A DNA stretch of 64,000 nucleotides from Longimicrobiales bacterium (GCA_965238005.1 OZ250165.1:1504001-1568000), one strand, 5' to 3'. Shown: positions 11,511 to 33,091, counted from the first letter of the stretch. The notes: generated by a model not told the origin, from the sequence alone. Made by a program: numbers and translations.

Positions 11511-11594
11511 GGAGGGGTGGCAGAGCGGTTCAATGCACCGGTCTTGAAAACCGGCGGGCGCAAGCCCACGCGGGTTCGAATCCCGCCCCCTCCG
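11511..11594 (+). tRNA. tRNA-Ser(TGA)
   Basis: GGAGGGG/CCCCTCC acceptor stem, CCGGT-CTTGAAA-ACCGG anticodon arm, long variable arm, GGTTCGAATCC T-arm. CCA is not encoded. Confidence 0.95.
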
Positions 11595-11597
11595 CTA
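11584..11597 (+). repeat. attL core (tRNA-Ser 3' end), 14-bp direct repeat
   Basis: CGCCCCCTCCGCTA, identical to 21830-21843. Confidence 0.85.
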
Positions 11598-11651
11598 GTG
11601 CAATACGGCAAGAGCCGATGTAGTATAGACTTACACCGTTATCTGTGCATC

Positions 11652-11675
11652 GTGCCCTACGGTGTGTCCCACACT
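11652..11675 (+). promoter_or_regulatory. Putative integrase arm-type binding site pair (left)
   Basis: GTGCCCTACGGTGTGTCCCACACT matches 21678-21701 at 21/24; each copy is two imperfect 12-mers. Confidence 0.6.
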
Positions 11676-11802
11676 ACGAGCGGGACGCAAACACTTCCGG
11701 CAGGTGTTCTACTCGGCCGCGCGGGACGGCCAGCCCAAGCCAGGCCCTCAATAGCCTTCCAGCGCTCGCGCAACTGGAGAACTGACCGCCCGCGTTCGCC
11801 CG

Positions 11803-12120
11803 TCATGCCTCTGGCAGTTTCGGCGGCTTGTCTTCCTCATCGAACAAGCTAGGCGGCTTGGTAGTGGCCCCCAGGCGTTCGGCCACGATCCGGGTGTAGC
11901 AGTCCACAAGGTCGTGAGCCGCCATCGCCACGGGCACGCCGGGAGCGGACCCGGACCCCTCGATACGAGCCATCAATTCAACGGCGCACTCAAGGCCGAA
12001 CTCCAACACGTCGCCAGCCCTCGCGCCGTCGATGGTGGCCGCTATGTCGTCCGCGATCTTCAAGGCACGCACGGGCAGGCGGACAGTACGGGTCGTTCTA
12101 GGCTTGCGTCGCTTGAACAT
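11803..12120 (-). CDS. Hypothetical protein, possible ribbon-helix-helix DNA binder
   Basis: AAGGAG RBS; basic N-terminus TRTVRLP followed by two predicted helices. Confidence 0.5.
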   Translation of the reverse strand: MFKRRKPRTTRTVRLPVRALKIADDIAATIDGARAGDVLEFGLECAVELMARIEGSGSAPGVPVAMAAHDLVDCYTRIVAERLGATTKPPSLFDEEDKPPKLPEA

Positions 12121-12272
12121 CGAATCTCCTTTTCCATGGAATACGGCCAGACCCTAAAGGTGTCACACATACTCCATCCGGTGTCAAGATTGCAAGTGAC
12201 AACCGTATACTGCGTATGCGGGGGATGGTGGCTCAGGGCACCCTAGCACCCACGGACAGGGGCCGAAGGCTG

Positions 12273-13304
12273 CTAGGTGCCGCTCTGTGCGGCCAGGGAA
12301 TCGAGCCCGGTGAGCCTCGCTGCATCGGCCGCGCTCATTCCGGCCGTTACCAATTTCGCGGCCGCACTCGAACGGCCGACGATATCATGAGCCCACAGAG
12401 CCCCGAAGTTGAACGAGACTTCCGTGTCCAGCGCCATGGAGGCGTCTTCGGCGATCATGTCAGCGACGGGCTGGACGGTCGCCATGATCCACCGGCGGTA
12501 GTCTTCTCGAAGCTGCGTCCCGTCCGCGTCCGCGCCCGCCAGGCTGGCCGGAATCCCGCACGCAGCGAACACGGCCCCGGACACGTCCGAGTAGAGCGAG
12601 CGCAGCCCCTCGGGGATCGTCGGCCCCAGGCGCTCGGCCTTCCAATCGTTCCGGGTCCCGCTTTGCGTGCCTTCGCCCCATCCGGCGCTAGTGGACTCTA
12701 GGAGAACCGCCTTTCCTTTCGCTTCGCCTATATCGGTTCGGAGCGCTTCAAGCCCCGCGCCATCGGTCGGGATCGGGACCAGGGCGGCCGTGGGAGTCGC
12801 CAGGTCCTCGGTGATCTTCCCCTCGGCTCCCACGGACAGCTTGCCGAGTAGAGAAGCCACCCCGAGCGGAGACACACCTAGCCAGGGTTGGAGGGGATCG
12901 ACGGACCATCGAAGGTGCAGGACCTCATGACGCGAGACGTTGCGCCGCACGATCACGCCTTCCGGTTCCGGCAAGTGAAGCTCGTAGCGCCAGCCCTTCC
13001 GCACGTCGAAGGCAGCGACGGGCTCAAGATGCAGGCGAGGCTCAACCGCGATCAGGTGAACGCTTTCACCGTGCCGGATCAGGTCCCGGCCGATGGTGTG
13101 GCGCACCCGAGCCGTGAGCACTTCCGGCGCGCCCTCGATGTTCGCAGCGGCCAGGGTGCGGCCCCACAGACCCGCCGCGATCTCAAGCGCTCCGGTGCGT
13201 AGCACGTTCCCGGCATCGGCCGCGGCCGTCGCTTCCAGCCCGGCCACGATCAGGCTTGTGTATCCCGCCGTCCGTTCCTCACGCCGCTTGAAAGGCCACT
13301 TCAT
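12273..13304 (-). CDS. Phage portal protein (HK97-like, short)
   Basis: MKWPF start, L..HGES, EVLHLR....G.SPL and ACGIP..L....Y....VQP motifs. Confidence 0.8.
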   Translation of the reverse strand: MKWPFKRREERTAGYTSLIVAGLEATAAADAGNVLRTGALEIAAGLWGRTLAAANIEGAPEVLTARVRHTIGRDLIRHGESVHLIAVEPRLHLEPVAAFDVRKGWRYELHLPEPEGVIVRRNVSRHEVLHLRWSVDPLQPWLGVSPLGVASLLGKLSVGAEGKITEDLATPTAALVPIPTDGAGLEALRTDIGEAKGKAVLLESTSAGWGEGTQSGTRNDWKAERLGPTIPEGLRSLYSDVSGAVFAACGIPASLAGADADGTQLREDYRRWIMATVQPVADMIAEDASMALDTEVSFNFGALWAHDIVGRSSAAAKLVTAGMSAADAARLTGLDSLAAQSGT

Positions 13305-13711
13305 CAGATCCGCCCGTCATTGATTAGGTATACCGTGAATTGGAATCGAAGCGCAGCGTTCAAGCTCGATCCAACGGCCTTCTGAGTGGGCAGGTCCCAG
13401 GCACCGGCCAACTGGTAGAAGTAGACACTGACGCCCGAGATCAAAGCATCCTTCAATGTCTGAATCATGAGCTTGGCGATGGCCGGGACCAGCTTACCGG
13501 ACACTCCCACGGCGTCCAGGTGGCCGAAGTAATTGAGAAGGTCCACGGCCAACACGACCCCACCGTGTCGCTGCATTATGCGAATGCGTAGGGATCGCTT
13601 GAGCGCCCCTGACTTCACCGGAATCAGGCGTTGAACATTGGTGCGGAACCCTGAATTGATCTCCGTCTTGAGTACGCCCAGGATGGACCCGGTGAGCGAC
13701 GGCGTAGGCAT
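13304..13711 (-). CDS. HK97 gp10-like neck/tail-completion protein (weak call)
   Basis: IPVKSGALKRSL resembles the gp10 P.xTGxLxxSI motif; translationally coupled to both neighbours. Confidence 0.45.
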   Translation of the reverse strand: MPTPSLTGSILGVLKTEINSGFRTNVQRLIPVKSGALKRSLRIRIMQRHGGVVLAVDLLNYFGHLDAVGVSGKLVPAIAKLMIQTLKDALISGVSVYFYQLAGAWDLPTQKAVGSSLNAALRFQFTVYLINDGRI

Positions 13712-14052
13712 CAGACTTGCCTACTCGTGCATGTGATCGTCGTCTCTCTCTGGCGTTCGTCGGCCGTCGAGATAGACGTAATCAGAAGGTCCCGGCCCCT
13801 CACCCGGCAACGTGCCAGGGTGAAGTCTCCCAGGCTGGCCCTTTGGGTGACGTTGTACAAAAGGGTTCTCATGGATCGGGGCATGGCTAGGTAGCGCATG
13901 GTGACGGAGAAGGCGTCAGCCCGGCTCAATCCGCTTCCCAGGTCGAAGCTTGCGGTCCCCTCATCTTGCACGTCGGCCAGGACGGGCACGGTCACAAAGT
14001 CATCGGCGGTCGATTCCCGGTACGACAGCGTGACCTCTTCATCGTACCTCAT
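13711..14052 (-). CDS. Head-tail adaptor/head-closure-like protein
   Basis: MRYDEEVTL start overlaps the upstream TAA; beta-rich 113 aa with TMRY and ITSI..D...ETTITC; follows the connector. Confidence 0.55.
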   Translation of the reverse strand: MRYDEEVTLSYRESTADDFVTVPVLADVQDEGTASFDLGSGLSRADAFSVTMRYLAMPRSMRTLLYNVTQRASLGDFTLARCRVRGRDLLITSISTADERQRETTITCTSRQV

Positions 14053-14414
14053 TAGGGGCCACCCGCCGCGCCGTCGCCGCCGTCGCCGGTGTCCGCCGGA
14101 ACGGCCCCGATCAAGCCACCACGCCGCACCTTGTACGGATTGAGCAGAGAAGCCGCGCCGCTCGAACGCATGGCAGCCGGGCCACCCGGTGCGGCCCCGC
14201 TCGGGTCTGAATCGTAGAGCCACGCCGCCAGGCGCACGAACGCCTCATCGTGGAGCGCGTTCGGAGCGTTCGGAGCGTAGGCCTCCACCATGGCGGTGGC
14301 CGTGGCCGCGATCCTGCCCAGGATAAGGGCAACCGCGCCGGTGGGTGCGGCTTCGCCGTCCGTTATCCGGAGATCGCCTGCAAGCTGCGTGAGGGTCCGG
14401 GTAATCACAGCCAC
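14052..14414 (-). CDS. Head-tail connector (HK97 gp6/SPP1 gp15-like)
   Basis: Helical 120 aa with L...LRI, ATAMVEAY, A...LAAWLYD and SLLNPYK motifs. Confidence 0.7.
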   Translation of the reverse strand: MAVITRTLTQLAGDLRITDGEAAPTGAVALILGRIAATATAMVEAYAPNAPNALHDEAFVRLAAWLYDSDPSGAAPGGPAAMRSSGAASLLNPYKVRRGGLIGAVPADTGDGGDGAAGGP

Positions 14415-14854
14415 ACTCGCCTACGGGCCGTGCTCCGCACTTCGGCGGCCGTCGTGTCGTACTCCGGAGCGCTCACCAACGCAGCCGCCGGGACCATGGC
14501 CCGTAGGACCTCACGGACACCGGCCTTTGTGGTGCGTTCTTCCAGAGCGTGAAACTCAACGCTCATAAACCGCTTACCGGATTCGACGGCCGCTCGGATG
14601 GCCTCGGTCGCTCTGGCTGTCAGAGTGATCCGGCCGTCACGGTGCCTCACGGGCTGTGCTCGAACCTCGACGGCCCCCCGGTGCTCCGCTAGCACGGCCA
14701 CGCCGTCATGCGGCCAGGACACGCTACCAGGTGCGAACACCTCCGCACGGCCACCACTGGCGGCTCTGCCCTCTTGCAACATGACGCCCCTGAGCGTCGG
14801 TTCGTAACCGGCGCGCTCGGCCTCACGTACCTCGACCTCAAAGCTGTATTTCAT
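14405..14854 (-). CDS. HK97-type prohead protease
   Basis: EVFAPGS, LAEH (His), MSVEF (Ser) and ALVSAPEY motifs. Confidence 0.8.
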   Translation of the reverse strand: MKYSFEVEVREAERAGYEPTLRGVMLQEGRAASGGRAEVFAPGSVSWPHDGVAVLAEHRGAVEVRAQPVRHRDGRITLTARATEAIRAAVESGKRFMSVEFHALEERTTKAGVREVLRAMVPAAALVSAPEYDTTAAEVRSTARRRVWL

Positions 14855-15273
14855 CGGTACCACCTCCGCACCGCTTTATCGCACTCGGGAGAGATCAGGC
14901 CGTCAGAATCGGCTAGGCGAGCTCGCACCGTTTCCTCGCCAGGGTCAACGGTTCGGACGAAAAGCCCGCGCTCGCCTGCTACCTCGCGCCAACGCGGCTC
15001 TTGCCCGGCCCGCGACGTGGTGACCGCAACATCGGCCCCGGAGTCCAGCACGTTCCGGGCGATCACCGCTTGAGCGTAGAGCGCGGCCAGGAGCGCCGGA
15101 TCGTCTTCGCTCCGCACCGGATAGCGACCGTCAGGGCCACGGGTGGCACCCGAGAGCGCCGCCCATAGAGCGGTGACGTCCGCTACCACGGAAACCTCAC
15201 CGGCCTCCAACATCTCGGCCACGACCTGAGACTTACCGGACCCGGCCGGGCCTTGGACTAGATGCAGCGGCAC
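14851..15273 (-). CDS. Small P-loop NTPase/kinase-fold protein
   Basis: Walker A GPAGSGKS at the N-terminus; VDPG..V..R..WY C-terminus. Confidence 0.7.
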   Translation of the reverse strand: MPLHLVQGPAGSGKSQVVAEMLEAGEVSVVADVTALWAALSGATRGPDGRYPVRSEDDPALLAALYAQAVIARNVLDSGADVAVTTSRAGQEPRWREVAGERGLFVRTVDPGEETVRARLADSDGLISPECDKAVRRWYR

Positions 15274-15276
15274 GGC

Positions 15277-16512
15277 TTAGGAGATCTTCGGGTGGACCTC
15301 TTTGACTTGCGCGGTCCCGTGAGGAATGAACGGCTCGGCAACCAAGGTGACGGCCGTCACAACCCTCTGGCCCTTACCGGCCTGAGTGTACGGGTCCACG
15401 ATCAGCTCCACCCCGGACCAGATCGGCACGACCACGGACTGCCCCTGAGCGCCCAACAGCGCTACGCCCTTCTGACCGGACGCGGCCTTGTCCGGGACGC
15501 GAGTGGACACCCTCAGCACCGCGAGCTTGCCCATCAGGTAGTCATAGAGGCTCACCGCCGCGTTGTTCTGGTAGAGCGAAGCGTACAGCGCGAAGGTGTC
15601 GGTCCCGATCAGCGCCCGGATATCGCCGAATCCGTTGGCGTGCTTCCCCTCGACCAGGGCAGCGAACCGGGCCACTCCGGTTTGGAAGGTTTCCTTCGCG
15701 GCCGCTATCGCTACGTCCGTGGCTTGGTGGAACAGCCCGGAAAGGTTCGGGTCCGCGCCGTCTCCGTCGATCACTTGATCGTCCAGATTCGATGCCATGG
15801 CCCCGCCGATGGCTGCCCTCAAGTCTGCTTCCATCGAAGGCATGAGCGCGAGATCCTCCAGGCGCACGACGAACGAGCCGGTGATCCGGCCCGGCGTGCG
15901 CTTCGTCAGACTGAAAGCCGCAGCCGTGGAATCCGCCGCCGCGTCCTCAGCCTTCGCACCGGCAGGTGGCGCGGTCGTGAGCGCCGGAAAGTGAGCTTCG
16001 CCAGGCTGGACCATCGGCATGGTGATTCCGAGCGCGGCCGCGTCCGTCCGAGCGAATGCGAAAGGCACCGTCGGCCGGGTGGCGCTCACAGTCTCATCGG
16101 CAGGGTTCGGAGTGACGGCCCGCGCCTCGGGAGCGTCCTGAGCTTCCAGAAGCTCTAGCGGCATCCGGCCCGGCGTGCCCACGGCCTCCGCATACTCGGC
16201 GGAAGCGCCCCGGACACCCTGAGCGGTGAGCGCGGCCGACACGAAGTCACCCACCCGTGCCTTGCCTCGAAGCGCCAGGCGCTCGCGAGTCTCCGCGTCT
16301 ACCGGATCGGCGTTCGGGTCGGGATCGGGCTCGGCGCTTTCGGCGACGATGGCCGCCCGGTGGCGCGTCTCTAGGTCCGCGTACTCGGTCTGGAGGGTTC
16401 CCGACTCTGTGCGGACCTCATCGGTGAAGGCGTCGCCCTCAAGCCCGGAAATCTCATTCAGGCGGGAGCGTACTTCGGAGAGACGGAGTGCGATTTTCTG
16501 GCGAGAAGTCAT
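15277..16512 (-). CDS. HK97-fold major capsid protein with N-terminal scaffold (delta) domain
   Basis: N-terminal coiled coil, AKAE.AA, LDDQVIDGDG...LSGL and IVDPYTQA.KG motifs. Confidence 0.85.
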   Translation of the reverse strand: MTSRQKIALRLSEVRSRLNEISGLEGDAFTDEVRTESGTLQTEYADLETRHRAAIVAESAEPDPDPNADPVDAETRERLALRGKARVGDFVSAALTAQGVRGASAEYAEAVGTPGRMPLELLEAQDAPEARAVTPNPADETVSATRPTVPFAFARTDAAALGITMPMVQPGEAHFPALTTAPPAGAKAEDAAADSTAAAFSLTKRTPGRITGSFVVRLEDLALMPSMEADLRAAIGGAMASNLDDQVIDGDGADPNLSGLFHQATDVAIAAAKETFQTGVARFAALVEGKHANGFGDIRALIGTDTFALYASLYQNNAAVSLYDYLMGKLAVLRVSTRVPDKAASGQKGVALLGAQGQSVVVPIWSGVELIVDPYTQAGKGQRVVTAVTLVAEPFIPHGTAQVKEVHPKIS

Positions 16513-16539
16513 TAGGACCAAGCCCCTTGTGTGCGTTCA

Positions 16540-16848
16540 CTACGCGGGATCGCTCCCGCACGGTACTTGAGGCTTTTTTGGTCCAACTGAAAGCTGGCAG
16601 TCCGTGGTGAATCCCGCAAGGTGGCGCTCCCAGGCGTCTTCCGTCTCCGTGGTGGGCCGTCGATGGTGCTCTATGTGACACCCTCGACACCACGCTACCA
16701 GATTGGACGGCTCATTATGATCCGGGCGATGGTCGATATGGTGGACCTCAAGCTGCCCGGCCTTGCCACATTTCCGACACCGCCACCCGTCACGGTTGAG
16801 AATCTTCCGGCGTAGGAGCTTCCATTGGGCGGTCGATGTGCGGCTCAA
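16540..16848 (-). CDS. HNH endonuclease (packaging-associated)
   Basis: RDGWRCRKCG..LEVHHID..N..NL...CRGCH; the TTG start overlaps the terL stop. Confidence 0.9.
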   Translation of the reverse strand: MSRTSTAQWKLLRRKILNRDGWRCRKCGKAGQLEVHHIDHRPDHNEPSNLVAWCRGCHIEHHRRPTTETEDAWERHLAGFTTDCQLSVGPKKPQVPCGSDPA

Positions 16849-18314
16849 ACCAACACCGCTTTGACGCCCGCTGCCGGTGGCTCTTGAAGCACCTTCCGCC
16901 ACCCGAGCGCGACGGCCAGGATCGCGGCCGCTGCCGCATCGTCCCGAGCGCGAGCCCGTCGCCCCTGACCGGCCTTCGCCAATTTTTCATTCCCGGCTGG
17001 ATCGGCAATCGTGCGAGCGGAGGCAACGGCGGCAGACAGCAAGAGCGAGCGGGCAGGGGTTACCAGCATCCGGTGAAAGGCAGCCCTGAATCCTCGAACG
17101 TCTTCACCGCCGTCCCGGTAGCCCATTCCCCTCGACACCAACGCCACGAGAGGGAAACGGAGCGCCGCCAGCGCTTGCCTCAATTCGGCCTCACGCCAGC
17201 GGTCTGTGACTATAGCCGCGGGCGCGCCCCACCGCTCCCACACTTCGCCCAGGAGCGTCCGAACGTCGCTCACCTTGCCAGGGGATAGGACAAGCTCACC
17301 ACGCGCCTCCATCTTCTGATAGAGCGCTCCCACGCCGTCACGGAGCCCTCTTTCTTTCGGTCCCGGGTCGTCACCGAAACATGCGACGGCATCGAGCCTT
17401 CCCGTCTCGCACCAAAAGCCAGAAGCGGCCGACATAGCCTCGGTTGAACCCAGGTCGATCCCGAGCACGTAGTCACCCACGGCCGCCGCGTCACCCTCGG
17501 CAGCCTTCCAGGCGCCCGGCTGTAGCAAGTGAGCCTCAACCGTGTCGGACGTGCCCAGGTTGAGCCTGAGCGCCCCGAACGAAGCCAGGGCCACCGGGTC
17601 CCGGCGCGCGATCTCGGCTTCCTCGCGCAACCGATCCTCAAGCCAGGGGAAGGCATCTAAGGAAGGGTTGGCCCGTCGCCATGTACGCCGCTGAAAAGGC
17701 GGGTCATCCGGCCTTGCCGCGAAGGTTGTGGAACCCGGCTCAGCGAGCATCCTAGAGAACCAATGGTCCTCAGAGTCGGGCCGTGTCCCGAGAGCGATCA
17801 GTCGAGAGCCCGGATGCTTGCCCAACCCGGTCCTCAGCGCAGCCAACGCCGCCTCACTGGTAGTGGGTGGCCACTGTGCGGGTTCGTCCGCCAGCACGAG
17901 AAGCGGCCTCAAACCGTGCATCCGGCGCGGGTCGGACCCGATGGCTTTCAAGCGGGCTCTTGTGGGCAAGTGCTCTATCTCGGCAATCGCGGTCGTGTCC
18001 CGCACCCGCCAGGTGTCCCGATCCTCCAGGCGCTCGCTCAGGTAGTGCTTCACGTCCCGAAACATGATGAGGCTCTGAGCGAACGAAGACGCGACCAAGA
18101 TCACCTCCGCACCCGGAGCGCGGAGCGGGCCGTCAATCACCGCCGCCGCTATCGCTCCGCACAGCGCGCTCTTGCCGTTGCCCCTCGCAACCGATAGGGC
18201 AAGATCGCCCTTGGTGCGGGCCAGGTCCGAAAGGAAACGGCGCTCCCAGGGGACGAGATCCAGGTGACGGCCGACATAGCCAACTAGGGATTCACTCACG
18301 AAGCGTGACCACAA
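16845..18314 (-). CDS. terL: Terminase large subunit
   Basis: Walker A VARGNGKS, Walker B LVLADE, W.RANPSL and nuclease GIDLG motifs; start may be 18299. Confidence 0.9.
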   Translation of the reverse strand: MWSRFVSESLVGYVGRHLDLVPWERRFLSDLARTKGDLALSVARGNGKSALCGAIAAAVIDGPLRAPGAEVILVASSFAQSLIMFRDVKHYLSERLEDRDTWRVRDTTAIAEIEHLPTRARLKAIGSDPRRMHGLRPLLVLADEPAQWPPTTSEAALAALRTGLGKHPGSRLIALGTRPDSEDHWFSRMLAEPGSTTFAARPDDPPFQRRTWRRANPSLDAFPWLEDRLREEAEIARRDPVALASFGALRLNLGTSDTVEAHLLQPGAWKAAEGDAAAVGDYVLGIDLGSTEAMSAASGFWCETGRLDAVACFGDDPGPKERGLRDGVGALYQKMEARGELVLSPGKVSDVRTLLGEVWERWGAPAAIVTDRWREAELRQALAALRFPLVALVSRGMGYRDGGEDVRGFRAAFHRMLVTPARSLLLSAAVASARTIADPAGNEKLAKAGQGRRARARDDAAAAAILAVALGWRKVLQEPPAAGVKAVLV

Positions 18315-18409
18315 AGCCGTACTTCGGGCTCTCTCTCAGGTTGGCCGGTGCCATAACGTGCCGGTCCGCCGAGTCGGACGTGTCTATCCTCGAGCCGAGT
18401 CATCGTCAT

Positions 18410-18625
18410 CTATGCGCGATCGGGATCTACTGGCCCCATCACCTTGTGCTCCACTCCATCTATCTTGACCGTCGCGCATTCGACCTCGGGCTCTGGCTCT
18501 GGCTGTCCATCTTCGGGCTCGCCTTCACCCGTCTCGATGCGCTCGCGTGCGCCCTCTACGAGCTTGGCTAACTGCCCCTGGATATCTTCCAGGTTCGCCA
18601 AGGTCACCTTCACCTCGATCTCCAT
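18410..18625 (-). CDS. Hypothetical acidic protein
   Basis: 71-aa ORF abutting the upstream stop within the satellite operon. Confidence 0.55.
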   Translation of the reverse strand: MEIEVKVTLANLEDIQGQLAKLVEGARERIETGEGEPEDGQPEPEPEVECATVKIDGVEHKVMGPVDPDRA

Positions 18626-18856
18626 TCAGTCCGCCCCCTTGCCCGCTAGGATCGCTCCAATGAACAGCGCTGCTACAGCGCCCATGGCCCCGGCGTCGCC
18701 GTGCGGCAGGGTAACGCACAACTGGCCGTCATCGGTTGGCGAGATCGTCACCCTTAGCTCGTCTTCCGGTTCGTCACCTTCGGTGCGGGAGTAGAGCCGC
18801 TGCGTCTCGCCCTCGGTTTCCGTGCTCCACCCCGGTAGTGGGAAGTCCTGCCTCAT
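18626..18856 (-). CDS. Hypothetical protein
   Basis: 76-aa ORF with ATGA overlap with the upstream ORF. Confidence 0.55.
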   Translation of the reverse strand: MRQDFPLPGWSTETEGETQRLYSRTEGDEPEDELRVTISPTDDGQLCVTLPHGDAGAMGAVAALFIGAILAGKGAD

Positions 18857-19023
18857 GCGCTCGCCTCGATGGCGACCCGGTACGCTTCGACGAACTCCGG
18901 CACATCTTGCTTCACCAAAATGGCGAAGTCTTCCGGCTCGATCTCACCCGCTTCCATGAGCTTGAGAATCGAGGCGGCTTTCTCTCGGGTGTTGGTCCCT
19001 CGGATCGTGGTTTCTGCTTTCAT
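18853..19023 (-). CDS. Hypothetical 56-aa protein (not in ORF track)
   Basis: MKAETTIRG...AIEASA*, with ATGA overlaps at both ends. Confidence 0.55.
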   Translation of the reverse strand: MKAETTIRGTNTREKAASILKLMEAGEIEPEDFAILVKQDVPEFVEAYRVAIEASA

Positions 19024-19679
19024 GTGTTCGGGCTCCGCGTGGGGTACCAGGAAGGTAGGACTGTCCCCGTAGGGGGTGGGGTCCCACCTACGGCGGTCCC
19101 ACCTTCTTGGGACCCACTAGCGGGGAGACTCCACAGATACATTCTCGGGTTGACTTTCGTCACTTCGATACGACCCTCGACTCTCAACTGTGACAGCGCC
19201 TTGGTCACGGTATCCTTGCGTCCACCAACCACCCTGCGCACCGCCGCCGTTGCCAGGGGACCGGCACCCGTCAACGCTTTGATGATGCGTTTCTGCATGG
19301 TGTCGGGTTCGGGCTTGGTTTCCTTCGATGCGGGCAGTTCCCGTGCAGCCCGTAGCCGGAAGTCTTCCGCAAACCGCGCTTGTTCACGGTTCCGATGCTC
19401 CAGGGTGGCCCGGTTCATCGCCTCGGCCGTGTAGGTTTGCCTGCCCCACGTTGCGGGCTCTGTGGCGAGTACGGGTGTGGGTATGATGGGGCAGCCCGGC
19501 GGGAGCCCGTCACCGATGGATGGGATGGGTTCCTCGACAGCCTCAGCCGCCGCCTCGGCCTTTGCGGCCATGCGGTCGCAGATGGCTTGGTATTCCTCAT
19601 TCGTGTGCTCTGTGTTGAGTCCCAACATCTTCCGCACCCGGACCACTTCGGGCGATGGCGCGTAAGGGTCAGGGGCCAC
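19020..19679 (-). CDS. Hypothetical protein with C-terminal winged HTH
   Basis: IIKAL..AGPL.T..VRRVVGG.K..V.KAL..L..EGRI....W.L pattern. Confidence 0.6.
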   Translation of the reverse strand: MAPDPYAPSPEVVRVRKMLGLNTEHTNEEYQAICDRMAAKAEAAAEAVEEPIPSIGDGLPPGCPIIPTPVLATEPATWGRQTYTAEAMNRATLEHRNREQARFAEDFRLRAARELPASKETKPEPDTMQKRIIKALTGAGPLATAAVRRVVGGRKDTVTKALSQLRVEGRIEVTKVNPRMYLWSLPASGSQEGGTAVGGTPPPTGTVLPSWYPTRSPNT

Positions 19680-19718
19680 GCGGGCTACTATCGCTTGCCG
19701 TTCGGTGGGGGCTTCGCT

Positions 19719-19913
19719 TTATGCGGCTGGGCTGTTGGAGGCGGGCCGGGATTCGAGCCAGTCGGACACGTCCTCGGCCTTCCAGCGGACTGCCCGCCTG
19801 CCGATGCGGATCGGGCGCGGAAACCGGCCCTCGCTCATCAGCCGGTAGATCGAAGCGCAGGATAGATCAACGGCCTTCTCGACGTCGGGGCGCCGCATCA
19901 GCTTCGGAAACAT
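19719..19913 (-). CDS. alpA: AlpA-family regulator/excisionase
   Basis: LMRRPDV...DLS.ASIYRLM..GRFPRPIRIG.RAVRW...DV.DWL; GGAG RBS. Confidence 0.9.
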   Translation of the reverse strand: MFPKLMRRPDVEKAVDLSCASIYRLMSEGRFPRPIRIGRRAVRWKAEDVSDWLESRPASNSPAA

Positions 19914-19999
19914 TGTTGGGTCTCCTTGCAAGTGCTTGTGACTTCGCATGGAGACACGATGACGACGGGAAGGCGGCCCCGTGAGTTGGTAGAATTCAA

Positions 20000-20530
20000 C
20001 TAATTGTTCCCACCACTCCAGGACACGTCGTCATCCCGGTTCCGCCTGAGCCAGATATCCCGGTAGACATCGTTGTGATGAATGGCCCCGCCCACGAGGC
20101 GACAGGCCTCCATCACACCGAGGCCGAGCCCTTGAAGCTCGAAGATCGTGTGTACGACTAGCAGATTGCGCAATGCTTTCGCCGGCCGTCCGGGTTTCCC
20201 CGGTGGGGGCTCTGACCTTGTTCCGTCTGCGACGTCCCGCACCCATTCCTGGAACCCGGGATCGTCCACGGCGGCCTGAGCCCATTCGCGGTCTTGTGCG
20301 GGGAGATTGGTCGGGTCTCGGGAGACCTGTAGCAGGCACTGCAACGCCTGCCAGCAGGGGCGATCATCCTTACTCCGGTCGATGAGATCCTGAAGGTCGT
20401 TTCCGATTTCGGCCCCTTCGTTGACATCATGCGTGACGGCGAGGATTCTTTTGAGCCTCTTGACCTCGGGACCGTTCTCGTCGAGCGCCTCTTTCAGCCC
20501 CAGCAGGACTTCCGCGACCCGCTTATTCAT
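20000..20530 (-). CDS. Hypothetical protein between integrase and alpA
   Basis: MNKRVAEV start overlaps the integrase stop; GKPGRP followed by an HTH-like C-terminus. Confidence 0.55.
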   Translation of the reverse strand: MNKRVAEVLLGLKEALDENGPEVKRLKRILAVTHDVNEGAEIGNDLQDLIDRSKDDRPCWQALQCLLQVSRDPTNLPAQDREWAQAAVDDPGFQEWVRDVADGTRSEPPPGKPGRPAKALRNLLVVHTIFELQGLGLGVMEACRLVGGAIHHNDVYRDIWLRRNRDDDVSWSGGNN

Positions 20531-21660
20531 CGTTTGCCTCCGATGTACCGCGCCCAATCGGCCATGACTTCGCGGCGGCGCTCGTACAGCGTCCCGCGAT
20601 CGTAGGCCGCCTGCACCTTGTCCCGGACCGCGTGAGCAAGCGCCCGTTCCGCGAGCTCGGGGGCAACGGCGGTGTCGCCGCACCATGTCCTGAACGATGT
20701 TCTGAACCCGTGCGGAACCGCTTGGACGCCGTTCTCCCGGAGTAGCTTCGTCAGGGTCATGGCCGACAGCGGCCGCCCGGTCGGGGAAGGGAAGATCAGC
20801 CCTGAGCCGTCCGCGATCTCCCGCGCCTCGTCGAGAACTTGGAGCGCGGCCGGGGCGAGGGGAACACGGTGGGGACGGCCCGACTTGGTGCGACGGCTGG
20901 GGATCGTCCACGTGTCTCCGTCGATCTCCGTCCATTCGGCCAGCCTTGTCTCCCCGGATCGCGTCGCGGTGAGCGTCAGGAACCGGAAGGCCAGCTTCGT
21001 CTCGATCCATGCGTCCGAAGCCTCCACCCTTGCCAGCGCGGCCCGGACCTCTTGGTGGGGGACCGCGCGGAAGTGCTTCACCTTGCCCCCGTTCTTCGGC
21101 AGTGCCGCCCCGATGGCGTCACCGGCCGGGTTGTCCTCGCGGTAGCCTTGGGCTATTGCCCACTTCATGACTGCGCCGATGCGCTGGCGCACCCGCCGGG
21201 CAGTCTCCCTCTTGGTGCTCCAGATCGGGAGCAGAACGGCCATCACGTCGGCGGTGTTGACCTGGTCCACCCTCTTCCTCCCGATACGAGGGAAGGCGTA
21301 GGTCTTTAGGCTGGCGCGCCACTGGGCTTCGCTCTTGCTTCCCGGCCGCCACGCCTCAAGGTGAATCTCCAGAACCTTCTCCAGTGCGCCCTCGAAGCTG
21401 GGGGCCGTGGTCTTGAGTGCGCGCGGATCGCCACCGGCTCGGGCGAGTTTCTTGTACTCGAACGCCGCCTGGCGCGCTTCGGCGAGCGCAGTGTAGGGGT
21501 AGCCGCCGAGGCCCAGGTCTACCCGGCGGCCCCGAACGGTGCCGCGCCAGATCCATTGCTTGCTTCCGGTGGGCTTCACCCGTAGGATCAACCCGTGCTC
21601 ATCGTAGTAGAGTCCGGGCTTCGCGTGCTTCACGCTGGCCGCCGTGAGTCGCTTTGGCAT
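20527..21660 (-). CDS. int: P4-like tyrosine integrase with arm-binding domain
   Basis: GLILRV..GSKQW..LGGYP...LAEAR arm domain; catalytic TRSGE, TK, HGFR, LAH and AY motifs. Confidence 0.95.
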   Translation of the reverse strand: MPKRLTAASVKHAKPGLYYDEHGLILRVKPTGSKQWIWRGTVRGRRVDLGLGGYPYTALAEARQAAFEYKKLARAGGDPRALKTTAPSFEGALEKVLEIHLEAWRPGSKSEAQWRASLKTYAFPRIGRKRVDQVNTADVMAVLLPIWSTKRETARRVRQRIGAVMKWAIAQGYREDNPAGDAIGAALPKNGGKVKHFRAVPHQEVRAALARVEASDAWIETKLAFRFLTLTATRSGETRLAEWTEIDGDTWTIPSRRTKSGRPHRVPLAPAALQVLDEAREIADGSGLIFPSPTGRPLSAMTLTKLLRENGVQAVPHGFRTSFRTWCGDTAVAPELAERALAHAVRDKVQAAYDRGTLYERRREVMADWARYIGGKR

Positions 21661-21677
21661 CGTTCGATTCCCCCGCT

Positions 21678-21701
21678 GTGTCCTACGCCGTGTCCCACAC
21701 T
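21678..21701 (+). promoter_or_regulatory. Putative integrase arm-type binding site pair (right)
   Basis: GTGTCCTACGCCGTGTCCCACACT, matching 11652-11675. Confidence 0.6.
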
Positions 21702-21829
21702 GTATTCGAGAATACACGCAAAGGCGTAAGAACACAAGAGTACGAAGGGGAACGTAACCCGAAGGTACTACAGGGATTTAGAGACTTCGCGGGAACCTAC
21801 GGGAACACCTGAAAACCATAAGAGAGGGA

Positions 21830-21843
21830 CGCCCCCTCCGCTA
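21830..21843 (+). repeat. attR core, duplicate of the tRNA-Ser 3' end
   Basis: CGCCCCCTCCGCTA lies ~170 bp upstream of the integrase start. Confidence 0.85.
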
Positions 21844-21865
21844 TTGTGGGACAACGACTTACGGC

Positions 21866-21904
21866 AAAAGGCCCGCCCGCCGAAAACCGGCAGGTGGGCC
21901 TTTT
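21866..21904. terminator. Bidirectional terminator-like hairpin
   Basis: AAAAGGCCCGCCCGCCG-loop-CGGCAGGTGGGCCTTTT. Confidence 0.5.
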
Positions 21905-21924
21905 GGCAACGGTTTTGGCAACGG
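21901..21924 (+). repeat. 12-bp tandem repeat, possible arm sites of a second island
   Basis: TTTTGGCAACGG x2, ~60 bp beyond attR. Confidence 0.55.
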
Positions 21925-21958
21925 CTACCGCGGAATGGGACGTTGGCCCGCAACTGCC

Positions 21959-22085
21959 TCAAGGGTGTCCAGGGCCCCGCTCCGGCTCATCCACGAGCGA
22001 TCGAAGGTGCTCGCGGGAGAGGTGTGTATAGCCCATCGTGGTGCGTAAGTCGGAGTGACCAAGACTCTCCTTCACGTGCACCGGA
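21959..22085 (-). pseudogene. C-terminal fragment of a tyrosine recombinase
   Basis: VKESLGHSDLRTTMGYTHL box II motif; upstream part missing. Confidence 0.8.
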
Positions 22086-22099
22086 TTCTTCTCTTCGGC

Positions 22100-22318
22100 C
22101 AACTTGTAGAGATCGGGTCGAGCCGCGGATTCGATTTCACCGCCGAGGAGATACTTAGCGTGCGCAGCACCGCGCTCGACGACGAAGAGCTGACCGACGA
22201 CGCCCTTGAGGCCGTGGCTGGCGGCGGCCAGGTCCAGGATCCGGAGGCGTCGAGGGTGACCAGGACCAAGAAGGAGAAAGTGCAAAAGCTGGACACGACG
22301 GAAATACTTCGGCCCTAG
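22100..22318 (+). pseudogene. Nif11-like leader RiPP precursor, 5'-truncated
   Basis: LVEIG..RGFDFTAEE..ELTDDALEAVAGG double-glycine leader, then a 30-aa core. Confidence 0.7.
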
Positions 22319-22433
22319 CGACACCGCGATGGCGAAGCGGTAGCGCCTGAGAAAGTCCACGGCAGAGTCCTCGAGTGGAGTTGACCCGCTTTGGTGGACA
22401 CCTCAGTAGTGAGGGAGACAGGAGGAGTCCACG

Positions 22434-22748
22434 ATGCCAAGAACACATGCGCCGTACCCGCCGGAGTTTCGGCGGCAGATGGTCGAGTTGGTCAGGTCGG
22501 GCCGCTCCGTGGAGGAGCTGGCCCGGGAGTTCGAGCCCTCAAACGGGGCGATACGGAACTGGGTCAAACAAGCTGACTTGGATGAAGGCCGTCGCAGTGA
22601 CGGGCTGACGACGGAGGAGCGTGGGGAACTCAGGCAGCTTCGGCGTGACAACAAGCGTCTGCGCATGGAGCAGGAGATTCTAAAAAAAGCCGCCGCCTGG
22701 TTTGCTCGGGAGAGCAACTCGATCCCGGAACGGGGTTCGAGTTCATGA
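22434..22748 (+). CDS. IS3 transposase OrfA
   Basis: YPPEFR HTH and ILKKAAAWFA; A7G -1 frameshift site at 22682-22689. Confidence 0.92.
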   Translation: MPRTHAPYPPEFRRQMVELVRSGRSVEELAREFEPSNGAIRNWVKQADLDEGRRSDGLTTEERGELRQLRRDNKRLRMEQEILKKAAAWFARESNSIPERGSSS

Positions 22749-23596
22749 AGACGAATCAGGCCGACTTCCCTGTGCGGGCGATGTGCCGTGTGCTGGATCT
22801 CTCCCCCAGCGGCTACTACGCCTGGTTGGATCGCGAGCCTTCGGCTCGGGCGAAGCGAGATGAGGAGCTCACAGAGCGGATCGAGACGGTCTGGCGCGAG
22901 AACCGAAGGGTCTATGGCCGGCCCCGCATCTACGCGGACCTCAAGGAAGCTGGCGAGCGGGTCGGTGAGAAGCGGGTGGGCCGGCTCATGAAGCAGGCCG
23001 AGATTGTGGGAGCTAGCCGGAGGCGGCGCGGCCCGAAGACGACCAGGCGCAACGAGGACGCCCGTCCCGCGCCGGATCTCATCGAGCGGGACTTCAGCGC
23101 AGACGGGCCAGACCAGTTGTGGGTGGCCGACATCACCTACATCCCGACCTGGGCGGGGTTCTTGTACCTCGCGGTTGTGCTCGACGTCTGGAGCAGGCGG
23201 GTGGTCGGGTGGTCGATGGCTACGCACCTGCGCACCGAGCTCGTCCTGGACGCGCTGAACATGGCGACCTGGCAGCGCCGGCCCGAATGCGTCATCCATC
23301 ACAGTGATCAGGGAACCCAGTACACCTCGATCGCCTTCGGCCTACGCTGCAACGATGTCGGTGTGCGGCCCTCGATGGGCTCCGTGGGCGACGCCTACGA
23401 CAACGCGATGTGCGAGAGCTTCTTCGCGACGCTCGAGTGCGAGCTACTCGACCGGCAGCGCTTCCGGACCCAGGCCGAGGCGAAGATGGCCGTGTTCGAC
23501 TTCATCGAGGGCTTCTACAACCCCCGGAGGCGACACTCGGCACTGGGTCAGCTGTCGCCCATCAACTTCGAGCGTCGCCACGGAGCGGCAGCATGA
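22745..23596 (+). CDS. IS3 transposase OrfB (DDE)
   Basis: WVADITY, HHSDQGTQY, DNAMCESFF and YN.RRRHSALG motifs. Confidence 0.93.
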   Translation: MKTNQADFPVRAMCRVLDLSPSGYYAWLDREPSARAKRDEELTERIETVWRENRRVYGRPRIYADLKEAGERVGEKRVGRLMKQAEIVGASRRRRGPKTTRRNEDARPAPDLIERDFSADGPDQLWVADITYIPTWAGFLYLAVVLDVWSRRVVGWSMATHLRTELVLDALNMATWQRRPECVIHHSDQGTQYTSIAFGLRCNDVGVRPSMGSVGDAYDNAMCESFFATLECELLDRQRFRTQAEAKMAVFDFIEGFYNPRRRHSALGQLSPINFERRHGAAA

Positions 23597-23720
23597 GAAA
23601 CCTGCGTGGCCAAGTTGCCCTTTACTCCCCCGCTGCGCGGGGGAAGCTTTCCTCTCCCCAGCGAGGGGGACAGACTATAAACCTCAGTGTTCACCCGTCC
23701 ACTGAAACGGGACAGCTCCA

Positions 23721-24955
23721 CTTCTGTCTTACGCCCGAGTGGGTGCTGTCGATCAGGTTGGTCGAGCCCAGGCACTTCCTCAGCCGCGGCGGGAGGCCGA
23801 GCCGGTTGATCGTGAACATCTCGCTGAGGCCTTCGCGTAGGCTGGCCGAGGCCGAGGGGTGGTCGCGCTCGAGCCATCGGGCGAGCTGCTCGAGCTTCTG
23901 CTCGCCCTGCTTCGCGTCCAGCTTCATCGCCGCCCGGAACGCCGCCTTCACCTGAGGATGCTGATCCTTCGGCAGATGACCCAGCACGTTGCGGAGCTTG
24001 TGGTTGCGGCAGCGCTGGATGGGGTGACGTTGGCCGAACACCTTCTCGATCGCCTTCCTGGGCGCTTTCGAGCCATCGATCACGAACAGCCGCCGCCTGC
24101 CCGGGTCCAGGCCGCGCTCGACCAGATCCTCTAGGAGCGCGCTGGTCACCTCGGCGTTCTCACTCGCTCCTTCCCTCACGCCCAGCACGTGCTTCTTTCC
24201 GTCTGAGTCCAAATCTAGGGACACTACCAGCAAGGGTGCGAGCCCATCTGGATCCCGTCCAGGTAGATCACCAGGAGGTCCCACGCATCCAGCCGGCGCT
24301 CCATCAGCTCCTTCAGCACGCGCTCCGAGGCCTCGACCGTCTCACGGCTCACCGCCGACTTGCTCACCCCGACCGTGTCGGCCATCTCACCGATCACACG
24401 GCCGTACTTCCGCGTGCTCACCCCCGCCATCAGGACCTCGAGCATCCGATCCGCCACGGCGCCCGGTCTCCGCATCGCTGCGTACGCCGGCACCTCGACC
24501 TCGCCACCCTCCCCGGCGCCCCGGCGCCTGAGCCGTGGCCGCTCCACACGCACCTTCCGGTCCGACAGGTAAACCACACCACCCTGCCGGCCATACCACA
24601 CCGTGTCGTCTTCCGCTCGTGACCGACCTGCCTGCTTCACGCCTGCCACACCCTCGGCGCTCATCTCCAGCACCGCTTCGATCGTCGCTCGTCCCATCAC
24701 CTGGATGACTTCGTCGATCGCGACCTCCGTCTGCTCCACGAGCTCAAGCATCGGAAGCAGAAACTGCCCCTCCCGCTTCAGGAACTCCCTGATCGCGCGC
24801 TTGTCCGCCCGATCCCTTACCTCGTACGTTCTCTTCATCGTGGTGGCTCCGTGTTGGGGTTTTTGCCTACCCGAGCCTATCGGCCCGGGACCCCCGGAGC
24901 CACCACTTTTCTTTCTCCCCTATCAGGAACCTTCAACTACGGTTGGGACAGCTTC
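23721..24955 (-). mobile_element. IS256-family element, frameshifted and 3'-truncated by the IS3
   Basis: GVSTRK, VSKSAVSR and IYLDG (24224-24838), then FVIDG, QRC..HK.RN and STNLID in another frame; frame break near 24230. Confidence 0.85.
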
Positions 24956-25185
24956 TGAACCAGGCACCAGGGTTGCCAGCCTTCACGCATACGCCGTTCC
25001 ACGCTTTGCGGAGGCTCTTGATGGGCTGGCCCTTCCGGTGGAACACCGTCCGCACGATGGTGCCCAATGTTCGTTGCACCCGTTCGGTCCTCTCTCGCTG
25101 CTCGCGGATGAGGGCGGCTAGTTCAGGGAGTGCGCGGAAGGGGATCTCGCGGCCTTCATTGTTCTTCGTGGTGCCGGGCTCCCAC
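24956..25185 (-). pseudogene. Internal fragment of a phage-type tyrosine integrase
   Basis: EPGTTKNNEGREIP...VFHRKGQPIKSLRKAW..C.KAG.PGAWF, cut by IS256 just before the expected HxxR motif. Confidence 0.7.
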
Positions 25186-25969
25186 TGGCCTCAAGTAGTG
25201 CGGCAAGTGCTTGAGCACAGCGCGATGCTCCTGGCGCTGAACGTCGCAACGACGGTGCCTAAGGAGTAGCCGCCTTACCCCCAAACGGGACCGAACACCC
25301 GAACAGTCGCGCCCAGCCGAGGCGTGTTATGGGTGGGGTGGTGGGGCTTGCACGATGAGGACGCGGCTACACCAACAACGTCCAGATTCCATCAGTTACC
25401 AGAGCAGACCACTTCCCACATCGACTCTCCAACCCGTTTCGGGGCGGACGGGTAAGGGAGGGCTACGCCCTATTGACTTTCTTCGCCTTATAGATGCTGC
25501 GCGTCCAAGATGTCGACCGGCGGGCGCAGCGTGTGACCTACATGCTCAGCGCGCCAGTAGCGATAATCGCTCGTCAGCGGGTGGGGGCGCTGGATTTAAC
25601 GGAAGACGCCGCGACCTCTTCTGCGTGTGCGTATGCCCGTTTCCAGGACCTGAAGTGAGCATCGTCGGGGCTGTCCGTCCCGTCGAGCCACGCAGATATA
25701 TCCTCCGAAGAGACCACCTCCGACGAGCCCATCAACACCGCAACCACGTTATCATCCGGCCCCGGCGATCGCGGCGTAGACTCTAGTGAGCCTACCGACT
25801 TTCCTTCCCAGTCTCGAAGGTAGCGCGCCAGGTGGCCGGGGGAAGGTAGTCGCTCCACCTTGCGGCGGTTGAGTCAGTGGTGGAACAATAGTCTTCGCAA
25901 TTCGCTCTCCGGCCGTGATGTCTGTCACACGGCCGGCACGGCCCTTTTTTGGGAGTGTCGGAGGAACAC

Positions 25970-26920
25970 ATGAGACCATGGACCCTTCTTTTCGGCTCCG
26001 CGTTCACCGTTGCGCTCGTCGGTTGCGCCGACTCTCCGACCCCCGCGCCGCCGGAGGGCTACGTGGAGGTCCCGGGCGGCAGGATCTGGTATCAGACCCT
26101 CGGTGCGGAGTCGACCGGTACGCCCCTCCTCGTCATTCACGGCGGACCTGGCTTCGGCAGCTGCACCTATGTCTCGACCCTCACGGGGATCGCCCAGGAC
26201 AGACCCGTCATCCTCTACGATCAGCTCGGGGCCGGACGATCGGATCGCGCGGACGATACCTCCCTCTGGCAGATCCCCCGCGAAGAAGTCGATGCGCTGC
26301 GCTCGGCTCTCCGGCTGGACGAGGTCCACGTCATGGGGCATTCCTGGGGAGGCACGGTGGCGATGGAGTACATGCTCACGCGACCGGAGGGGGTGCGCTC
26401 GGTGGTGTTCGTGGGACCGATGTTGAGCACGTCTCGTTGGGTGAAGGAATCCGTCGACTTGATTGGACAACTCCCTCCGAGTCTGGCCGAGGCCTTGAGG
26501 CGGGGTGAGGCGACCGGTGACTACGCGTCGCCGGAATACCTGGCCGCGACCGATTCCTTCTACGCTCGATTCCTGGTGCGCAGCGAGTGGCCGTGGCCGG
26601 TTCTTCCGGGCTGTGAGGAGGATCCCGGTGTAAACATGCAGGTCTACGAGCACATGTGGGGACCGACGGAGTTCACGGCGACCGGAACACTGCTGGACTT
26701 CGATCGGGTGGGCCGGCTGCCGGAGCTCGATTTGCCGGTGCTTTTCGTCGTCGGCCGCTACGACGAGATCCCGACCGAGACCGTGCGGGAGTTCGCCGGA
26801 CTCGTTCCCGGGGCCGCCTTCGAGATCATCGAGGATGCGGGCCACATGGTCAACATCGATGGCACGGAGGCGTTCAACTCGGCGGTCGCCGCCTTCCTCG
26901 GCGACGTAGACGGCCGCTGA
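25970..26920 (+). CDS. Proline iminopeptidase-family hydrolase, lipoprotein
   Basis: LVGC lipobox, HGGPG, YDQLG.GRS, GHSWGG, MWGP.EF...G.L and AGH motifs. Confidence 0.88.
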   Translation: MRPWTLLFGSAFTVALVGCADSPTPAPPEGYVEVPGGRIWYQTLGAESTGTPLLVIHGGPGFGSCTYVSTLTGIAQDRPVILYDQLGAGRSDRADDTSLWQIPREEVDALRSALRLDEVHVMGHSWGGTVAMEYMLTRPEGVRSVVFVGPMLSTSRWVKESVDLIGQLPPSLAEALRRGEATGDYASPEYLAATDSFYARFLVRSEWPWPVLPGCEEDPGVNMQVYEHMWGPTEFTATGTLLDFDRVGRLPELDLPVLFVVGRYDEIPTETVREFAGLVPGAAFEIIEDAGHMVNIDGTEAFNSAVAAFLGDVDGR

Positions 26921-26926
26921 GGGGCG

Positions 26927-33060: not shown

Positions 33061-33091
33061 TTTCGGGCCGACAGTGTTGTCGATCCTTAGC

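Follow-up and report, generated by a model that had tools for sequence, protein, structure and literature searches.

We describe a putative capsid-forming satellite of 10,246 bp that lies integrated at a tRNA-Ser gene in a 64,000-nucleotide stretch (hereafter the window) of a Longimicrobiales bacterium genome (GCA_965238005.1, OZ250165.1:1504001-1568000). The element combines a P4-type integrase and AlpA with a compact head operon that runs from terL to portal, an arrangement that recurs in a family of similarly sized elements. We consider it probable that the element is a satellite which evolved independently of the described phage-inducible chromosomal islands that form capsids (cf-PICIs), works as they do and steals the tails of helper phages.

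Boundaries and gene content of the element

The first-pass annotation of the window, made from the sequence alone, had proposed an element of about 10.2 kb bounded by 14-bp att repeats in tRNA-Ser, with an intact P4-like integrase, AlpA, a translationally coupled operon from terL to portal and no frameshifts, and each of these features is borne out (Table 1). The att repeats are exact, and the distance between them gives the length of the element. Only two sites in the window match the repeat with up to one mismatch, where the chance mean is 0.07, and none of 100 shuffled windows contained two copies. The G+C content of the element, 62-67% per kb, matches that of the host (65%). Just inside the two ends lies a pair of 24-bp repeats, placed as integrase arm sites would be. 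The minus strand carries all 17 open reading frames (ORFs) of the element, each open without an internal stop. Read from the right end, they comprise the integrase, a 176-aa ORF, alpA, a 219-aa ORF, three small ORFs and, after a gap of 110 bp, the head operon in the order terL, HNH, capsid, P-loop, protease, connector, closure, gp10-like and portal, followed by a 105-aa ORF. Seven of the eight junctions between terL and portal overlap or lie within 3 bp, the exception being the 27-bp gap between HNH and capsid. Catalytic motifs were found in TerL, integrase, HNH, protease and the P-loop protein.

Table 1. Features of the element and of its integration site, in coordinates of the window (aa, amino acids)
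Feature	Position	Strand	Basis
tRNA-Ser(TGA), integration target, intact	11511..11595	+	ARAGORN
att core, left copy, 14 bp, tRNA 3' end	11584..11597	.	exact match to 21830-21843
24-bp repeat inside left end, candidate integrase arm site	11652..11675	.	88% alike to 21678-21701
105-aa ORF, possibly small DNA-binding regulator	11803..12120	-	no credible family
Portal, 343 aa, last gene of head operon	12273..13304	-	PF04860 E 8e-8, below cut-off
135-aa ORF, probable HK97 gp10-like tail-completion protein	13304..13711	-	no Pfam/PHROG match
113-aa ORF, probable head-closure protein	13711..14052	-	PF05521 E 0.06
Head-tail connector, HK97 gp6 fold, 120 aa, short Gly/Asp-rich tail	14052..14414	-	model pLDDT 88
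Prohead protease, 149 aa	14405..14854	-	29-34% to relatives with PF04586; His and Ser motifs
Small P-loop protein, 140 aa, accessory	14851..15273	-	PF13671 (AAA_33) E 4e-6; matches middle of phrog_4581
Major capsid protein, 411 aa, of HK97 fold with helical (delta-like) domain at N-terminus	15277..16512	-	PF05065
HNH endonuclease, 102 aa	16540..16848	-	PF01844; phrog_119 E 2e-14; 4-bp overlap with terL stop
Terminase large subunit (TerL), 484 aa, alternative start 18314	16845..18299	-	phrog_9 E 4e-48; Walker A/B and nuclease motifs
Non-coding element conserved upstream of terL, putative packaging site	18300..18354	-	ATGGCACC at 18347-18354
Three small coupled ORFs, 56, 76 and 71 aa	18410..19023	-	no family; unclustered
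219-aa ORF, probable C-terminal winged helix	19020..19679	-	PF01978 E 0.02
AlpA-family regulator/excisionase	19719..19913	-	PF05930 E 6e-14
176-aa ORF, no family in Pfam/PHROG	20000..20530	-	4-bp overlap with integrase stop
P4-type tyrosine integrase, 377 aa	20527..21660	-	PF13356, PF22022, PF00589; phrog_1 E 7e-54; catalytic motifs
24-bp repeat inside right end, candidate integrase arm site	21678..21701	.	partner of 11652-11675
att core, right copy	21830..21843	.	exact repeat

The head genes are of HK97 type. The structure model of the capsid (predicted local distance difference test, pLDDT, 81) has long N-terminal helices at residues 6-114 and matches the capsid of roseophage R4C (Foldseek E 2.5e-11) and that of HK97 (2e-10). 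The alignment of the portal family matches the PDB portals 9i8c and that of the gene transfer agent RcGTA, while a PDB sequence search with the connector and capsid alignments returned no match. The connector call is upheld by structure: its model superposes on HK97 gp6 with a Z score of 9.2 and a root-mean-square deviation of 2.8 over 80 aligned residues, and the top 12 rows of the comparison are nearly all neck proteins, although Foldseek gave no significant match with it. In a helical protein of this size such a Z score is moderate, but both the order of the matches and the place of the gene agree with a connector. The closure ("adaptor") and gp10-like calls fare less well in this copy. The former yielded an hhalign probability of 3, a weak match, and the latter, compared with 14 gp10-like relatives, a probability of 34 (E 4e-4 over 30 columns), which is also weak; relatives carry clear head-closure and gp10 proteins. 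For the 149-aa prohead protease, a Pfam scan of the protein itself gave no match. In many relatives the protease is about 300 aa long (L016:13191-14117, L138:10854-11756 and others), with a second protease-like or unknown C-terminal domain, and a basic RRxWL-type motif at the C-terminus is common to these proteins and to the single-domain protease of the window.

The comparison of the element with at most three close relatives gave dN/dS ratios of 0.11-0.29 for terL, protease, P-loop and connector (singly, 0.11-0.16 for terL and 0.18 for the protease) and of 0.37-0.55 for portal, which are rough because dS is near saturation and which reflect long-term rather than current selection. The codon comparison thus indicates that terL, protease, connector and the P-loop gene are under purifying selection. 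Full-length homologues of the P-loop ORF occur in only 4 of 45 relatives. This ORF and HNH match neighbouring parts of phrog_4581, a family labelled terminase small subunit, hinting that the P-loop protein may belong to the packaging step. Outside the head operon, the 219-aa ORF has Atlas matches of 0.85-0.88 to helix-turn-helix clusters, which serve as leads only, and it occupies the slot that holds a replication gene in relatives. The three small ORFs have no Pfam or PHROG family and are not conserved among relatives, and the 105-aa ORF may encode a ribbon-helix-helix protein. Promoter and terminator scans gave results at chance level.

A family with a common gene order and size

Scans of viral contigs with single proteins gave no match, and alignment queries were needed to find relatives of the element. 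With these, 2,062 TerL and 335 capsid homologues were obtained among 8,000 candidates each, many of them on contigs of 8-11 kb. A TerL match, fragments included, is present in 43 of the 314 genomes of the host family and in neither of two from the same genus; across the phylum, the capsid was matched in 17 of 401 genomes. Among 62 more distant metagenomic loci, terL is followed by HNH or capsid in 58, the other four are too short, and the order terL-portal is not seen. Still more distant viral loci, 68 in number, are conventional in 59 cases, family-like in two and unclear in seven. Portal lies downstream of capsid in 80 of the 86 distinct loci that have terL, capsid and portal; five of the remaining six are circular or tandem, and in one the genes abut. 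Exceptions to the order are L019 and L011, in which terL and HNH are inverted.

The size of these elements is similarly uniform. A search for flanking repeats in 44 loci (23 + 21) gave 31 elements that were accepted by eye, which measure 9,549-11,073 bp with a mean of 10,289, a range bounded by the search window and one in which some short repeats may be chance. In 21 of them, a tRNA or tmRNA lies at one repeat, and these anchored elements span 9,554-11,073 bp. Their target sites are the tRNAs for Ser, Asn, Leu, Glu, SeC, Arg, Thr, Cys, Met and Gln as well as tmRNA. Furthermore, six contigs bear terminal repeats (L018, L094, L095, L101, L150 and L029), and one further contig (G465:C2) contains a 9,605-bp unit in tandem with 11,906 of 11,958 positions identical. 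Judged from these assemblies, circular forms of the family exist.

To characterize the variable genes, accessory ORFs of relatives from a simple gene caller were scanned against Pfam and PHROG (254 and 125, largely overlapping, and a further 108 of 119). They include proteins for head closure, gp10 proteins and two tail terminators, all in positions that vary, as well as varied replication genes, which follow alpA and encode AAA_25 helicases, Replicase-PriCT proteins, VapE or primases. Tail tube, tape measure, sheath and lysin were not detected among the scanned ORFs, and one weak match to a "minor tail protein" overlay a stronger gp10 match. In four loci (L250, L252, L255 and L265), genes with SocA/Panacea antitoxin domains, or their homologues, occur in or beside the head operon.

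The large terminase places the family at a distance from known phages. Among deposited phages, the nearest TerLs are HK97-like and align with no more than 49% of the query, at 27-29% identity; a search of 50,697 phage records with the capsid gave no match. A tree built with IQ-TREE from 66 rows, chosen from 205 TerLs, unites all 39 rows of the family in a single clade (SH-aLRT 100) that excludes HK97, the cf-PICI EcCIEDL933 and 25 other rows. No conventional phage locus falls inside the clade, so TerL is not nested in ordinary siphophages; such nesting had been named as an outcome that would speak against a satellite. Forcing the EcCIEDL933 TerL into the clade was rejected by the approximately unbiased (AU) test (p 0.018), a result that covers, of the described cf-PICI clades, the proteobacterial prototype. 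One locus from IMG/VR (L053, 4,095 bp) has terL directly followed by a family-like capsid, with a TerL that lies outside the family clade and near HK97; it paired with HK97 in a first TerL tree rooted on that phage, which was uninformative for that reason.

When examining the distribution of the family, it is evident that it extends well beyond the host. The branch of the window includes records named Gemmatimonadota, Gammaproteobacteria, Nitrospinota and Acidobacteriota. A second, alphaproteobacterial branch comprises 1,810 TerL clusters at E values up to 1e-100 among 8,000 candidates, with a complete element of 10,645 bp in Pseudorhodobacter turbinis (NZ_CP039965.1) and TerLs named from Rhodovulum sulfidophilum, Sulfitobacter sp. 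M39, Mameliella alba and Phaeobacter marinintestinus (by TerL match). The connector is found in 2,531 clusters at 50% identity. It had been suggested that gene order and host lineage mark an undescribed family. The order is confirmed by the distant loci, whereas the family is not confined to the host lineage. We found no description of the family in the openly accessible literature, a scope that leaves aside the 969 cfPICIs of SatelliteFinder, which possibly have alphaproteobacterial members. Three unannotated "Ralstonia phage" records of 12.9-13.4 kb (ON170149, ON170171 and ON170322) carry a TerL and, by their size, may be capsid-forming satellites.

Absent genes and the motif before terL

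The absence of tail, tape-measure and lysis genes, which had also been noted from the sequence, was examined with PHROG in 125 of 132 six-frame pieces of the element, the seven pieces left out being already annotated. None of them matched a family for tail, tape-measure, lysis, small terminase (TerS) or primase functions, whereas all five positive controls from EcCIEDL933 and HK97 were detected, including both TerS controls and, at E 5e-191, the EcCIEDL933 primase. The lack of TerS and of a primase had not been remarked upon in the first-pass annotation. Nor does the TerS family PF05119 have a match over cut-off anywhere in the host genome. TerS profiles built from two single sequences, applied to loci with at least 400 bp upstream of terL, matched 34 of 50 conventional phage loci and none of 38 family loci; since 16 of the 50 controls were missed, a very diverged TerS could escape such profiles. 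Near the capsid, no HK97 tail-tube or TerS profile matched in any of the 86 distinct loci. The closest loci are thus not full-length prophages with tail genes, which would have been the other outcome named as adverse to a satellite.

In a six-frame all-against-all comparison of 46 elements, no group of unannotated ORFs was common to more than four, the two larger groups being helicases and integrases. The genes directly upstream of terL are unrelated to one another across the family, in which no small ORF is conserved. In the integrase-less branch, the TerLs of L096, L097 and L023 are lengthened at the N-terminus by a basic stretch of about 40-50 aa, which might take the place of TerS in binding DNA.

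What is conserved before terL is a non-coding motif. In the element it reads ATGGCACC, first spotted by eye, and in 24 of 67 loci it lies 9-89 bp upstream of the estimated terL start, where 0.004 are expected per locus, the relatives counted not being independent. The motif was also considered as the true terL start or as a leader peptide; both were ruled out by its frames (0, 1 and 2 in 11, 5 and 8 of the 24 loci). Other loci have GGGACCC at the same place, and the alphaproteobacterial branch has GGTNCCAAT there in 31 of 38 loci (expected 0.003), often with a T-tract box 3' of it (25 of 39, compared with 3 of 10 conventional HNH-terS gaps and 3.6% of random windows). Two linear viral contigs (L096 and L097), a related pair that amounts to roughly one observation, end 27-28 bases after the start of the GGGACCC motif, and their first base lies about 210-220 bases ahead of terL, as would result if the genome were cut at a point between the motif and terL. 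In this data set, contigs of conventional phages often start just before terS. The motif is likeliest to be a packaging site; the alternative is a late-promoter element.

Proposed mode of life, rival explanations and known satellites

Based upon these features, the life cycle of a capsid-forming satellite can be proposed. AlpA and the integrase would excise the 10.2-kb circle, which would be replicated by functions of the host or helper, perhaps begun by the 219-aa winged-helix protein. The element would then build its own small prohead, and TerL with HNH would cut just upstream of terL and fill the head with one genome. DNA recognition would fall not to a standard TerS but to a helper TerS, an unrecognisably diverged small ORF, or TerL and HNH themselves. 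The connector, closure and gp10-like proteins would finish a neck, to which a long tail made by a helper phage would dock, and the helper would also lyse the cell.

There is precedent for tail theft in the cf-PICIs (10.1101/2022.09.08.507074; 10.1101/2025.02.11.637232), of which three origins, in Proteobacteria and Bacillota, have been described (10.1101/2022.09.08.507074). The likeness that the first-pass annotation saw holds for a chromosomal island with a tyrosine integrase and att sites, AlpA, an HK97-type capsid, protease, portal, a connector of the HK97 gp6 fold, a probable closure protein, HNH and TerL, and without tail or lysis genes. At 10,246 bp, the element also falls within their range of 10-18 kb (10.1101/2025.02.11.637232), although the family, at about 10.3 kb, is smaller than the cfPICI median of 14 kb (PMC10085698). 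The likeness ends at TerS, which the family lacks in recognisable form, at the primase or replicase, which this copy lacks and many relatives have, and at gene order. The element has terL-HNH-capsid-protease-connector-portal, whereas EcCIEDL933 has capsid-protease-portal-connectors-HNH-terS-terL (10.1101/2022.09.08.507074), and with terL before HNH and portal last its order fits none of the three groups as described there. Furthermore, the family often has an extra gp10 and sometimes a tail terminator, includes integrase-less fibre-bearing forms, and has a TerL that is unrelated at clade level to that of EcCIEDL933. Due to the missing TerS and replicase, the different order and the rejected tree, the element should not be filed as a cf-PICI. 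The family would instead represent another, apparently independent and large, origin of capsid-forming satellites beyond the three described. The cfPICI model of SatelliteFinder requires 9 of 11 components (PMC10085698), a rule by which this copy would probably be missed, since it has neither TerS nor primase and several of its parts score under the Pfam cut-offs.

Several observations weigh against a helper-dependent satellite. Firstly, the particle, its induction and its transfer are all predicted from genes, the element has no recognisable replicase or TerS, the closure and gp10 assignments are those that are weak here, and the purifying selection is long-term. Secondly, a FastTree tree of all 205 TerLs recovered the family clade with a support of only 0.78, and several rows of the TerL tree have skewed composition. 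Thirdly, excision of this copy did not show in four sequencing runs, compared as assembled contigs: in run X1 the element has a depth of about 17-36 against about 15-25 for flanking contigs, and thus no amplification, and neither the attP joint nor an empty attB, both of which it had been proposed to look for in reads, was among the joints listed. Finally, the host genome (95.85% complete) contains no second head cluster and no match over cut-off to tape measure, tail tube, sheath or two TerL families, a search of limited sensitivity in that PF03354 missed the element's own TerL. A helper would therefore have to come from outside, which fits, by analogy, the tail-less heads of cf-PICIs that pick up free tails after release (10.1101/2025.02.11.637232). 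As for the other runs, a contig of X3 matches the element to 21842 and continues with 133 nt of other sequence, while in X4 the left flank is represented mainly by variant contigs at a depth of 14-20 and contigs that match the element exactly have a depth of about 2, a hint of a close strain that lacks it.

A first alternative, which we regard as unlikely, accepts a working family but holds that this copy is crippled, having lost its replication gene and moving only if complemented by another element. The replication genes after alpA in relatives, compared with the weak winged-helix ORF here, would be consistent with such a loss, as would the lack of amplification in run X1. Yet all ORFs of the copy are open and coupled, and the att-bounded relatives L016, L262 and L187 likewise have no replicase match. 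Moreover, the Streptomyces satellites MulchRoom and MiniFlayer are packaged though they too lack a primase (PMC10690885).

A second alternative, for which we see little room, is a self-sufficient miniature virus that needs no tail, in which the neck, with fibres in some members, would attach to the cell and DNA would enter by an unknown route. It draws on the absence of helper tail genes from the host genome and on a group of integrase-less relatives. Among 41 integrase-negative loci, 11 have a head module with an ORF of 600 aa or more, and among 45 integrase-positive loci none does, a contrast that its Fisher p of 1e-4 overstates due to truncated contigs and profile misses (such as L172) among the integrase-negative loci and to the few lineages that contribute the eight relevant ones. 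In these eight (L094, L096-L101 and L157), the long ORF stands at the connector and encodes a fibre-like protein of 730-1,200 residues, fused to the connector in L094, L100, L101 and L157, and several of these relatives are circular with a replication protein of their own. The other three (L189, L211 and L267), with the long ORF apparently elsewhere or in another frame, were set aside. The term fibre-like refers to weak matches to phrog_4242 (E 0.001) and phrog_18179 (E 6e-6), to a composition rich in Ala, Gly, Thr and Ser, and to repeats; an Atlas search with a fibre region gave only matches below 0.8. Among the best 150 connector representatives, eight have the connector at the N-terminus of a protein of 398-861 aa. 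Fibre-bearing members also encode a protein of 235-275 aa 3' of HNH (L096:1964-2788, L094:5065-5778, L099:1966-2784 and L100:2161-2865), the C-terminal part of which matches head closure in L094, suggesting that a neck protein of these members may have an extra N-terminal domain as well. The copy in the window has no fibre, however, no lysis or ejection protein was detected in any member scanned, and members keep head-closure, gp10 and tail-terminator proteins, which are known for docking a long tail.

The fibre-bearing relatives also have a helper-dependent counterpart. MulchRoom and MiniFlayer are linear, 15-17 kb long with terminal repeats of 1-1.6 kb, encode TerS and, like the element, have their own head and adaptor without a primase (PMC10690885). 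One of the pair has an integrase and a tail of helper length; the other, MiniFlayer, has a fibre that binds the neck of its helper and no integrase, and still needs that helper (PMC10690885), which argues against self-sufficiency. This split between integrase and fibre recurs inside the family, where the window's copy has the integrase and no fibre and eight relatives fit the MiniFlayer gene pattern. Neither satellite is among the 40 best of 67 phage records matched by TerL. We offer tentatively, as an idea more apt to fail than to hold, that TerL and HNH, by themselves or aided by a borrowed TerS, package the family's genome at a fixed site, and that the family switches between integrated forms using helper tails and integrase-less circles whose connector-fused fibres would grab the cell or a helper virion. 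If fixed-site packaging of this kind were true, it would amount to a sequence-specific HK97-type motor without a small terminase of its own, and if TerS were truly dispensable, the family would provide a minimal model for the recognition of its own DNA by a terminase. TerLs of the second branch carry the names of cultured marine Alphaproteobacteria, which opens three points to bench work: whether tails are stolen, whether packaging proceeds without TerS, and what the tail donor is; in these hosts, the candidate donor might be the host's own gene transfer agent.

A third alternative, highly improbable in our view, is a head module domesticated by the host, resembling a gene transfer agent or a decoy, which would package host DNA or interfere with phages instead of moving itself. 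Consistent with it are the match of the portal alignment to RcGTA and the missing TerS and replicase of this copy, which leave no obvious protein for self-recognition. Domestication is at odds with the intact integrase and att sites, the many different tRNA targets, the patchy presence in the host family and genus, the circular and tandem forms and the conserved cis motif before terL. The last alternative, a prophage decayed by deletion of its tail and lysis genes, is prompted by head genes of ordinary HK97 type and a right flank rich in insertion sequences, and it is refuted by the family data, given both att sites with no tail remnant between them, an order and size that two deep TerL branches have in common, a clade free of conventional phage loci, and purifying selection. 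Of the earlier description as an intact satellite and not a decayed prophage, the second half is therefore upheld, while the first holds as the probable reading set out above.

The preferred reading of a capsid-forming satellite also sets the element apart from other known systems. P4-like satellites target tRNA genes. The element resembles these satellites in its P4-type integrase, AlpA and tRNA target and also in size, P4 being near 11 kb (PMC13669383), but P4 borrows the capsid and terminase of its helper, whereas the element encodes capsid, portal and TerL. The P4 hallmarks Psu, Delta, Sid and alpha primase (partly after PMC10085698) had no match in the Pfam and PHROG scans of the element. 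With HK97-like heads, including RcGTA, it has in common a capsid fold with delta domain, the gp6 fold, probable closure and gp10 proteins and an HNH-assisted terminase; it differs in lacking TerS, tail and lysis genes or remnants of the latter two, in a TerL 27% identical over half its length, and in departing from the prophage order terS-terL-portal-protease-capsid. VEIMEs, found in marine Alphaproteobacteria, and EPIPs are likewise small helper-dependent elements with an integrase, but the former encode no major capsid protein (PMC9618062) and the latter carry a serine integrase, TerS and tape measure (PMC12822802).

The surroundings of the element contain further traces of mobile DNA. To its right, window positions 21844-34685 hold an older island, the second in tandem at this tRNA-Ser, with an integrase fragment near 21959-22100, transposase-like ORFs, lower G+C at 27-32 kb and, at its end, a copy of the tRNA-Ser 3' end (18 of 19 nt, 34667-34685). 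Elsewhere in the host genome there are about 20 more integrases of full length, which are 43-54% identical to that of the element and cluster near 0.71-0.88 and 2.73-2.84 Mb, accompanied by about ten alpA-like genes and no head genes. The genome also has dense arrays of 17 and 18 tRNA genes (C1:1035994-1037821 and 4451264-4455247), the first of which may be mobile in origin.

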